A stretch of 57,261 nt of DNA from a virus. Lineage: Duplodnaviria; Heunggongvirae; Uroviricota; Caudoviricetes. The stretch lies in IMG/VR virus record IMGVR_UViG_3300028591_000088; one strand, 5' to 3'. Made by a program: the position numbers and the translations under genes. The notes below the pieces were generated by a model. The model had not been told where the DNA came from. It saw only the letters and a program-made list of their open reading frames with translations, and searched no databases. Each line of letters opens with the position of its first letter. Position 1 is the first letter of the stretch. Positions 67 through 2,515 of the stretch are shown piece after piece.

Positions 67-95
67 TCAAACTTCTCTAAGGATAAAGCTTCTGT
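67..95 (-). CDS. Major capsid protein exon 2 (spliced C-terminus (Y)RSFILREV*)
   Basis: Follows the putative terminal G (96) of the intron. AC AGA AGC TTT ATC CTT AGA GAA GTT TGA completes ...AAT CCG T| in frame. Confidence 0.8.
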
Positions 96-1122
96 CAATA
101 TGTTATCGTAAGAGCTCTTTATCTCTTACATCTGTATTTTCCTTTGTTATATACAGTTCAGACTATATCACCATCCATATGGATGTCGGGCACTCATGGT
201 AAGATTATCGCTTGTGATGCTCACCTACTAGTCGTTAGCGGTTCAATATACTTTTACTCACTTCTATTGCTTCCGACGGGATTGTCCACTTCTGGAGGTT
301 CCCCGTTTTTACCCGATTTGCAATCAGCATTACTACTGAAGGCCGCACATTCTGTAATTTTAAAAGTTTTCTTATAAAGATATCCACTATCAGCAGCTTT
401 TCTCATTGAGGAAGTATTTATATTTAACTCTGGAAAAGATTTTGCAAATTCTGTTATAGATATATCCCAGGATTCTCCTGTATATATATTTTCTATATGT
501 CTTATTTTTTGTCTAGCTTTAGATATTTTGTCTCTTGTTTCTTTTCCATAAACCTTTCCTCTATGAAAATTTCCTATCTTTTTCTTAGCTTCTTCAGAAA
601 CTATTCTACCTTTTAGCTTTTCACTAATTTGCTTTTTAGTTTCTTCAGAATGATGTTTTCCAAACATTCCATTACGCTCCCCAAACATTTTTCTTTTTTC
701 TATCCATTCTGGAGTTTGTTTTGTTCCAGTCATATCTGGAGTATAATCAAAATATTGATTAATACATAATGGGTTATTCTCTACAGACTTTAAAAGTCGT
801 ACTTCACCATCATTTGCTAGTTTTCTAGTTTCAAATACCTCTATAATTTCTTTTTTAAGTTCGTTCTTATGCTCTTTTATATAAAGTTTAGTCCAAATTG
901 AACTAGAACCCATATACTTATCATCTTCAATTTCACATTTACAACTTCTAACACCTACATAGAACTCTCCAGTTCTCAAATTCGTAATTTTATAATTATA
1001 ATGATTCATATTACGAATATACCGAAAAATTTTATACTAAGCGAATTTTATTCACGAAGAATGAAAAATTGAAGTAGAATTATACATAAAGTATTAAATT
1101 TCTCTAATTACAAAACTTCTGT
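96..1122 (-). mobile_element. Group I self-splicing intron in the MCP gene, with a homing endonuclease in loop L1
   Basis: 5' exon ends in U (CCGU). IGS UGUGCGG (343-349) pairs with CCGU|ACA through a U.G wobble. Also present: P2 hairpin with GUAA tetraloop (324-339), P3 UCGGGUA/UGCCCGA (310-316/186-192), P4-like ACGGGGAA/AAUCCCGU, P7 GACUA/UAGUC (229-233/161-165) in a GAUAUAGUC context, P8 (172-185), P9 hairpins and a terminal G at 96. Confidence 0.88.
254..1009 (-). CDS. GIY-YIG homing endonuclease with NUMOD3 repeats (251 aa)
   Basis: N-terminal YNYKITNLRTGEFYVG..R...YMGSS; repeats GKHHSEETKKQISE, GRIVSEEAKKKIG, GKVYGKETRDKIS; 3' end overlaps the intron core. Confidence 0.9.
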   Translation of the reverse strand: MNHYNYKITNLRTGEFYVGVRSCKCEIEDDKYMGSSSIWTKLYIKEHKNELKKEIIEVFETRKLANDGEVRLLKSVENNPLCINQYFDYTPDMTGTKQTPEWIEKRKMFGERNGMFGKHHSEETKKQISEKLKGRIVSEEAKKKIGNFHRGKVYGKETRDKISKARQKIRHIENIYTGESWDISITEFAKSFPELNINTSSMRKAADSGYLYKKTFKITECAAFSSNADCKSGKNGEPPEVDNPVGSNRSE

Positions 1123-2515
1123 ACGGATTGAAAACTCCCACACCTGAGTATCCCCAGTTGATTACTTTAGAAGCTGCTACAGGGCTAGATACTTCACCAG
1201 AGCTAAGACCATTACGTCCACCAACACCAATATATTTATTAGTAATGAAGTCTCCACCCTTCAATGTAAACATCTGGATAGGTGGTTCAGCTTCAGTAGC
1301 GTCAGCTGTTAGGTCTAAGCATAAGCAATATGCTTTCTGGAATCCATATTCTCTTGAGAATGTTCTATCTACCTTGAAGGTAATTTGGTTGCCACCATAT
1401 TCATAAGAATCAAATGTAGCACCAACCTTGATATAATCATTAGCCTGCTTGCTATAAATATATGTACCTTCTGTCTTATATTTAGCTAAGAAATCACCAA
1501 GAACTGTTTGGATAAGAGTCCACATTCTTTCGTTGCAGATAAACATGTACTTGTTACCAGTAGGTTTCTTAGCTTTCTCATTCATAGTAGCAATCACCAC
1601 ATTGAATACATCAATAGTAAGTTTAACGAATGCATACTTAGAAGCAAATCTTTCAACCTGTGGGATAATACCATCACCAATATAAATAGGACGACCAGTA
1701 TCTGGGTCACTTATTGTTGGCTTACCGTTTACATCAACGTTAGTCTTATTAAAGAGCAAGCCGTTATTTCTTACATATAGGAAGTTATCAAGAAGATTCT
1801 TCTCTAACTTATCCATTCTATAAATAGTTTCTGTAAGGTTACCTTGTCCCTTACCTTCACCAATAGAAATGAATTTATCTTCGAAAGCTGCATATTGAGC
1901 AGAATAGCTATCATCAACACGGTGAGTTGTGATGTAGTTTCTGTGTTTCTCAATATTTGATTGATATTTTACGTATCCTTCCTCATGCATTTCAGGTACA
2001 GCATTGCTCTGGAATCTTGTAGTCATACCAATTTGGCAACCACTTAGGTCAAGTACTGACTTATAGTCATTGTCAATCAGACGAACAGTTACTTCCCAGT
2101 AATCGTCAGCCTTTCTTACAGGTCTTGCTACAACAAAACATTGCTGTCCAGTTTCATCAATCTTAAAGATATCGTACTTTTCATAGTATCTTTCTTTGAA
2201 AGCCATAACAATTTCTTGTCCATCGGCTCCGTCTGTTTCGGGAACTGCTGCAAATTCAACTCTCTTAATATAGTTGGTTTCAACCTCCCATTCAAAATAC
2301 ATAGCATCAATTGATTGATACTTATTACCTTGTTTTCTATCCTGATAGAAAATATTTCTAAGAGATTCTGTTAAATATGAAGCAGTTAATTCAGGATAAA
2401 GTCTTGAAACAACACCTAACTTATAAGGTTGTGTACCTAAGAATTTATAGAAATCTTCATAAGTACGTGTTTCAGACATTGTAGATCTGTTAGTTACAAA
2501 ATTTGCTACAATCAT
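1094..2515 (-). CDS. Major capsid protein, crAss-like (473 aa unspliced; exon 1 = 1123..2515)
   Basis: Long TAG-free ORF; features recalled from crAss-like MCPs (FEWEV, GDGIIPQVE, GVGVFNPYRSF end); downstream of a scaffold-like gene in a TerL/portal block. Confidence 0.85.
   Translation of the reverse strand: MIVANFVTNRSTMSETRTYEDFYKFLGTQPYKLGVVSRLYPELTASYLTESLRNIFYQDRKQGNKYQSIDAMYFEWEVETNYIKRVEFAAVPETDGADGQEIVMAFKERYYEKYDIFKIDETGQQCFVVARPVRKADDYWEVTVRLIDNDYKSVLDLSGCQIGMTTRFQSNAVPEMHEEGYVKYQSNIEKHRNYITTHRVDDSYSAQYAAFEDKFISIGEGKGQGNLTETIYRMDKLEKNLLDNFLYVRNNGLLFNKTNVDVNGKPTISDPDTGRPIYIGDGIIPQVERFASKYAFVKLTIDVFNVVIATMNEKAKKPTGNKYMFICNERMWTLIQTVLGDFLAKYKTEGTYIYSKQANDYIKVGATFDSYEYGGNQITFKVDRTFSREYGFQKAYCLCLDLTADATEAEPPIQMFTLKGGDFITNKYIGVGGRNGLSSGEVSSPVAASKVINWGYSGVGVFNPYRSFVIREI

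Follow-up and report, generated by a model that had tools for sequence, protein, structure and literature searches.

A group I intron in a crAss-like phage carries an in-frame copy of the capsid gene ending that lies beyond it

Coupled translation is described as a barrier to the folding of introns, with the ribosome reaching the 5' junction before the intron has been transcribed, and most introns of genes translated in this way carry an in-frame stop directly after the 5' junction (passages in PMC3073962 and PMC3984707). Introns in the major capsid protein (MCP) genes of Crassvirales have already been reported (passages in PMC7886860), and the movement of a free-standing endonuclease gene into an intron is a described route by which the two come together (passages in PMC2988022 and PMC3984707). 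From fungal mitochondria, endonuclease insertions are known that bring a duplicate C-terminus, as in atp6 of Allomyces macrogynus, rps3 of Ophiostoma, and atp6 and cox2 of Phlebia radiata (passages in PMC4019555).

The window analyzed here, a single stretch of 57,261 nt, derives from a crAss-like gut phage in which a 1,027-nt group I intron interrupts the major capsid gene nine codons before its end. Like T4 td/I-TevI and the introns of crAss-like MCP genes, it combines a group I core with an endonuclease ORF that lies in a loop and overlaps the core, and it sits at a conserved codon of an essential gene. Unlike those phage introns, for which an in-frame stop after the 5' junction is described (passages in PMC3073962), it opens with a complete nine-codon copy of the 3' exon, and its ORF lies in the P1 loop.

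All features lie on the minus strand. Exon 1 (1123–2515) encodes an MCP of the Crassvirales type, as indicated by a match to Pfam Crass_capsid above cut-off (E=1.5e-10; capsid family profile PF23898) and by a fold match to the crAss001 capsid (E=7e-24), with 7qoi, 7qoh and 7qof as top Foldseek matches and an HK97-type fold like that of crAss001; PDB sequence searches with the protein and with its alignment returned nothing useful, whereas the fold search did match. The first 29 nt of the intron (1094–1122) form the in-frame copy of the last nine codons, closed by TAA, and the native last nine codons plus TGA make up exon 2 (67–95). Reading both frames bears out the two endings that an earlier, sequence-only reading of this DNA had proposed: the unspliced frame (2515–1094) encodes 473 amino acids ending in NPYRSFVIREI*, and joining 1123 to 95 changes the ending to NPYRSFILREV*. 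Taken whole, the two C-terminal peptides have equal mass (V+I+I against I+L+V); SFVIR and SFILR are 14 Da apart. The copy (1122–1094) matches exon 2 (95–67) at 23 of 29 positions, as had been stated, and the next best 29-mer on either strand of the window reaches 20/29. TAG is a sense codon in this phage (ORFs of 100 or more codons cover 98% of the window, versus 45% under code 11), but both endings are valid despite the recoding because they stop on TAA or TGA; the capsid and endonuclease ORFs contain no TAG. No tRNA genes were found in the window (1–57,261), and a scan for sigma-70 promoters gave no signal (11 sites against 11.6 expected). The terminator claimed to follow exon 2 is present as an intrinsic-terminator-like hairpin, with a 10-bp stem at 48–21 and a U-rich tail.

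The nine-residue ending takes in the final beta-strand predicted for the capsid fold (residues 467–472 of the structural model, pLDDT 85–89). Exactly nine residues follow the proline in 108 of the 112 homologues that could be parsed (of 120 listed).

Behind the copy, an AT-rich spacer (1010–1093; GC 23%) precedes the start of a 251-aa ORF (254–1009) for a GIY-YIG-type homing endonuclease with a NUMOD3 motif (PHROG 314, E=2.9e-26; NUMOD3, E=1.7e-6, scoring 28.3 bits against a cut-off of 20.4). The Pfam match to GIY-YIG itself is weak (SegE_GIY-YIG, below cut-off, E=0.066); residues Y6, Y17, G19, R21, E69 and N84 are conserved across 48 aligned proteins and may represent an N-terminal GIY-YIG domain with its catalytic Arg, Glu and Asn. 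The ORF occupies the P1 loop, which also contains the copy, and its last ~30 codons overlap the ribozyme from the internal guide sequence (IGS) to P6a. Within 70 nt upstream of the endonuclease ATG, the motif TAnnTTTG, presumably a Bacteroidetes −7 box, occurs in 14 of 26 loci (e.g., L065, L142 and L098); the window carries a version with one mismatch at 1029–1010, in the spacer. At one further locus (L213:1700–2010), the 5' end of the endonuclease is fused to unrelated bacterial-looking sequence, possibly in a chimeric contig.

The 3' end of exon 1, CCGU (1126–1123), is the 5' strand of P1 and pairs with GCGG (346–343) of the IGS (343–349), and the IGS UGU (349–347) pairs either with the ACA of the copy, as a P1 extension, or with that of exon 2, as P10. 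Immediately before the IGS stands ACAGAA (350–355), a repeat of the first six nucleotides of exon 2. The ribozyme core (96–342), delimited by alignment and by covariation of its pairs, comprises P2 (339–324), P3 (316–311/191–186), P4 (306–302/280–276), P5, P6 (275–273/241–239), P7 (233–229/165–161), P7.1 (228–224/203–199), P8 (185–172), P9 (156–132), P9.1 (128–109) and the terminal G96. The core that had been called intact (P1 with its U.G pair, P2, P3, P7, P8, P9 and the terminal G) could be placed in full, in a structure supported by covariation. In all 22 loci with both splice sites readable (one per distinct element; L207, L208, L216 and L213, each with one end missing, were left out), exon and guide form four base pairs across up to ~850 nt, with U.G at the 5' splice site, and this pairing exists in three compensatory versions (CCGU/GCGG, CCAU/GUGG and CCUU/GAGG).

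Among the 22 cores aligned (L207 and L216 included, L137 and L318 not), both sides change in 43 of 55 named core pairs, and 97.4% of cells are paired, versus 30–43% when partners are slid; these shuffle counts are not probabilities, because the structure was drawn from the window, core patterns served to find some of the loci, and the loci share ancestry. Covariation of the core is broad despite this recruitment and kinship. P7 is invariant in 22/22, some of these loci having been found through core patterns, and therefore adds no covariation; the terminal G before exon 2 is likewise an invariant column across the aligned cores. In P7.1, an extra stem between P7 and P3', four of five pairs covary and the first is unpaired in 16/22; on account of this stem, we presume that the intron belongs to subgroup IA. 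A scan with Rfam group I models, suggested as a check in the sequence-only reading, yielded no match at the gathering score or even at E<=10, and minimum-free-energy folding, whether of the core or of the entire intron, yields neither P1 nor the pseudoknot. Many related ribozyme cores sit in other genes of other phages (L288–L341).

RNA runs X1 and X2, both metatranscriptomes of one sheep gut sample, contain 97–98% of the words of the stretch; DNA run X3 comes from a different sample. In X1, a 2,542-nt contig tracks exon 1 of the window and stops 30 nt into exon 2, one letter short of the 31-letter rule of the tool used. Against the copy, this contig shows five other letters and three unplaced ones at its end; on intronless locus L002, it crosses the junction to its last letter, with 21 other letters that are the differences between L002 and the window strain in that part of exon 1. 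The junction contig bears the window strain's exon 1, not that of L002. In X2, the assembly branches at 1116, where copy and exon 2 first differ, and a contig over the unspliced junction (66–1145) is present as well; both spliced and unspliced junctions occur in this run, the former at a calculated depth of ~126. The unspliced 5' junction, seen in one of the two RNA runs (X2, not X1), could derive from DNA. In X3, a single unbranched contig covers 66–1364 without mismatch and the exon 1/exon 2 junction is absent; a piece from this run placed on L002 has 21 other letters versus 26 expected. RNA run X6 and DNA run X4 contain only relatives and are uninformative for the junction. An intronless allele of the same strain, present in the RNA sample and carried over as DNA, could supply the junction contig. 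Taken together, the covarying P1 and core and the RNA junction contig (from one sample, with DNA carry-over possible) indicate that this group I intron is probably active.

Intronless L002 equals the spliced product, with no difference along 52 nt of exon 1 or the 95 nt downstream; the native gene end is therefore exon 2, and the copy, which is absent from L002, belongs to the element. Most relatives are uninserted: among the best 80 of 155 capsid loci, which we compared for the insertion, such an endonuclease is present in 3 and absent in 77.

Full-length copies, in which nine sense codons are followed by a stop as the tenth codon when read in the locus's own code, occur in 18 of the 22 introns at this site, and 17 other loci match the layout of the window. 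The remaining introns indicate that the backup is dispensable, since 4/22 lack a full copy: L200 ends in YSA*, L140 and L318 stop at the junction, and L096 is without a copy. Seven of the 18 full copies need TAG or TGA as sense, which is supported for L082, L119, L135, L281, L102 and L142, and for L144 by kinship only. The copies of L142 and L144 begin with TGA (Trp in their code) and their exon 2 gives Tyr, with L102 having TGA in both; because of this first codon, the copy of this group may stem from another host.

After four loci without a full copy and three near-duplicates were dropped, copies were intact in all 15 collapsed groups, versus 4.6–5.0 expected from an equal number of random changes, and none of 20,000 simulations reached 15, a result that cannot separate present selection from recent recombinational sampling of functional host ends and that comes from related loci. 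Third codon positions hold 73 of the 150 differences between copy and exon 2, and the changed codons over the 18 loci comprise 51 synonymous and 46 nonsynonymous ones. Each copy has its own exon 2 closer to it than other exon 2s (0/20,000 permutations), but none is identical to it, and all 15 differ within +19..+26 (near codons 7–9). Exon 2 has Ser3 in 15/15 groups and Glu at codon 8 in 13/15; the copies have Glu at codon 8 in 5/15, including that of the window, and Gln in 9/15. Because exon 2 and the ribozyme are strictly kept and because codon 8 differs in this way, the comparison suggests that the spliced ending is preferred. The sequence-only reading had further supposed a backup exon that makes the intron harmless whether spliced or not; the prevalence of full-length copies and the spliced junction in an RNA library agree with the backup, but "harmless" overreaches.

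The same site occurs in several other states. In L065 and L076, an endonuclease without a core is preceded by a copy with purely synonymous recoding that is the sole in-frame end, and the displaced native end lies behind the ORF. L070 (3065–3100) carries the recoded 5' part without an endonuclease; together with L028, L035, L036 and L038, it belongs to a set of endonuclease-free alleles whose Arg-Ser codons show the recoding of the L065 cassette and which may be cleavage-resistant. A free endonuclease with no displaced end is found at L124-type loci and L147. L119 keeps copy and core with most of the endonuclease ORF deleted; the introns of L096 and L318 contain no ORF, and L119, like L318, has the appearance of a deletion product. 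Further group I-like introns lie near the 3' end of the capsid gene (L041:3030–3240; L048/L075:3045–3240; L140:1690–1945; L105:1430–1700), at positions following ASKL, following INWG and ~9 nt beyond the site used in the window; some of them carry a different endonuclease, and L140 has three introns in a row. Three of the crAss-like loci (L280, L281 and L282) come from genome bins labelled Clostridium, Methanobacteriaceae and Paludibacter, the last a member of Bacteroidota, probably by chance binning.

A tail encoded by the ribozyme core ends 103 of the 120 listed endonuclease relatives; 16 lack it and one (P0096) is truncated. In trees built without this tail (85 rows, L166 dropped, for the change count; 45 rows for the AU test), free forms are scattered among intron-borne endonucleases, requiring five changes of which at least three are forced by strongly supported branches, and a single clade of free forms is modestly rejected (p-AU 0.028, 45 rows), with the root resting on distant outgroups with long branches. 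Because ribozyme-less relatives nest inside intron-borne endonucleases, these trees suggest that the ribozyme core has been lost repeatedly. The same nesting bears on a second scenario of the sequence-only reading, in which an endonuclease cassette carrying a cleavage-resistant gene end invaded the loop of an existing intron: as an origin it is compatible with the data, but the ribozyme-less cassettes now seen fall within the intron-borne group, which for them speaks for the reverse course. An invasion at that place would predict a conserved exon 2-like repeat before the IGS; the repeat is six nucleotides long in one of the 22 loci, the window, and at most three in the other 21, and so lends the invasion no support. 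Within the window, a deletion between the two ACAGAA repeats, one ahead of the guide sequence and one opening exon 2, would yield an L065-type junction.

On balance, we think it probable that the element is a mobile group I intron, with the in-frame copy of the last nine capsid codons serving as a backup ending while splicing lags, that the copy differs from the native end so as to escape the element's own nuclease, and that the ribozyme can be deleted where the two endings are equivalent. Downstream of the 5' splice site, transcription has to proceed ~780 nt to the guide sequence and ~1,030 nt to the 3' splice site, so that ribosomes would arrive at the junction when there is no ribozyme yet; with an ordinary intron, the capsid protein made at this stage would lack its last predicted beta-strand, whereas with the copy it would be complete. 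Exon 1 joined to the copy would rebuild a near-target for the element's endonuclease, and for that reason the copy would need changes relative to the native end, frequently in conserved residues (Glu to Gln at codon 8). Splicing would stay under selection because the copy is a slightly worse ending and splicing restores the native one; where a copy became equivalent, the ribozyme would be deletable and a free-standing endonuclease gene would be left. These three steps of the mechanism we infer. It is likely that the copy shields the phage as long as splicing lags and that it later allows the endonuclease gene to shed its ribozyme. More tentatively, the backup may provide two routes to the capsid protein, so that virions would be mosaics of two C-termini set by a race between splicing and translation, with repeated exit to free-standing endonucleases as the reverse of the textbook route.

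The copy might instead be a by-product of homing, the nuclease cutting ~20 nt downstream of the insertion site so that the recipient's own end overwrites the copy at each jump, an explanation that is compatible with the backup reading but that we judge unlikely. Copies do follow their own hosts better over +1..+20 (0.74 versus 0.56) than over +21..+26 (0.58 versus 0.47), copy and exon 2 of L281 agree for 20 nt and then diverge, and the ending QS* recurs in different hosts. However, the window's copy departs from the host end from +8 on, where host and L002 are identical; the distal part of the copy keeps frame and stop position, with three different stop codons; and the copy persists in L119 after deletion of most of the endonuclease. 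It is improbable that splicing is fully optional, with an equivalent copy and a neutral ribozyme kept only by recent spread: although the two endings of the window differ by conservative changes only and the core is lost in several lineages, the core is 97% paired with wide covariation across endonucleases that are 40–78% identical, and the constancy of P7 and of exon 2 residues Ser3 and Glu8 given above also speaks against neutrality. Recurrent Glu-to-Gln and Ala-to-Ser changes in unrelated hosts, along with both junctions in X2, could be read as regulated capsid isoforms, with mixed capsids set by the splicing rate, but we give this reading very little credence, as most relatives (77/80 capsid loci) are without the element and self-immunity explains the changes more simply. 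Least credible of all is a dead intron behind a replaced gene end, or an assembly artefact, with an RNA junction from an intronless phage: the missing Rfam match, the possible DNA in RNA libraries and single-sequence folds without P1 are outweighed by long-range P1 covariation, core covariation, the window strain's exon 1 in the junction contig, and the unbranched DNA contig and 17 other loci that share the layout, because of which the artefact considered earlier can be set aside.

In the fungal type of insertion, as we understand it, the displaced native end is no longer used. The present site resembles it in the insertion near the 3' end, the duplicate C-terminus in frame and the displacement of the original end: the window has an in-frame new ending with a stop and its native end downstream, and L065/L076 match the layout. 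Unlike in the fungal type, a conserved ribozyme in the window still joins the displaced end, so that the full protein can be reached by two routes; this end is conserved, appears joined to exon 1 in RNA contigs, and is left unused only in the L065 layout. The distance to the fungal type is not large, since the passages of PMC4019555 speak of alternative C-termini and an atp6 intron. As in collaborative homing, a single site has free-standing endonucleases, introns without an ORF and composite introns, but the described route leads from free gene to intron (passages in PMC2988022 and PMC3984707), and here the free forms nest inside intron-borne ones. IStrons similarly fuse a ribozyme to a mobility gene and soften the insertion (passages in PMC3984707); unlike them, this element has no IS605 transposase and gains its extra protection from a duplicated coding end. 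Replacement gene ends are thus known from fungal mitochondrial endonucleases, but their combination with a working intron was not found in the literature searched: at the level of titles and passages, no functional phage intron that duplicates its own 3' exon appeared (the supplements of PMC7886860 may bear on this), the passages of PMC7285627, PMC8393795 and PMC12880540 contain no matching case, and those of PMC2504315 do not support the Bacillus recA intron as a splicing-optional precedent.

The locus points to a second way for an intron to cut its cost in a highly translated bacterial-type mRNA, offering the ribosome a complete spare reading and not a stop at the junction. Gene callers find the gene intact and the core escapes Rfam; as a result, annotations of crAss-like phages lack both this intron family and the true C-terminus of the capsid protein. 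One site shows all states (empty, intron with or without copy, ORF-less intron, and free endonuclease with or without a displaced end), which allows direct tests of how free-standing homing endonucleases arise and of the race between translation and splicing.
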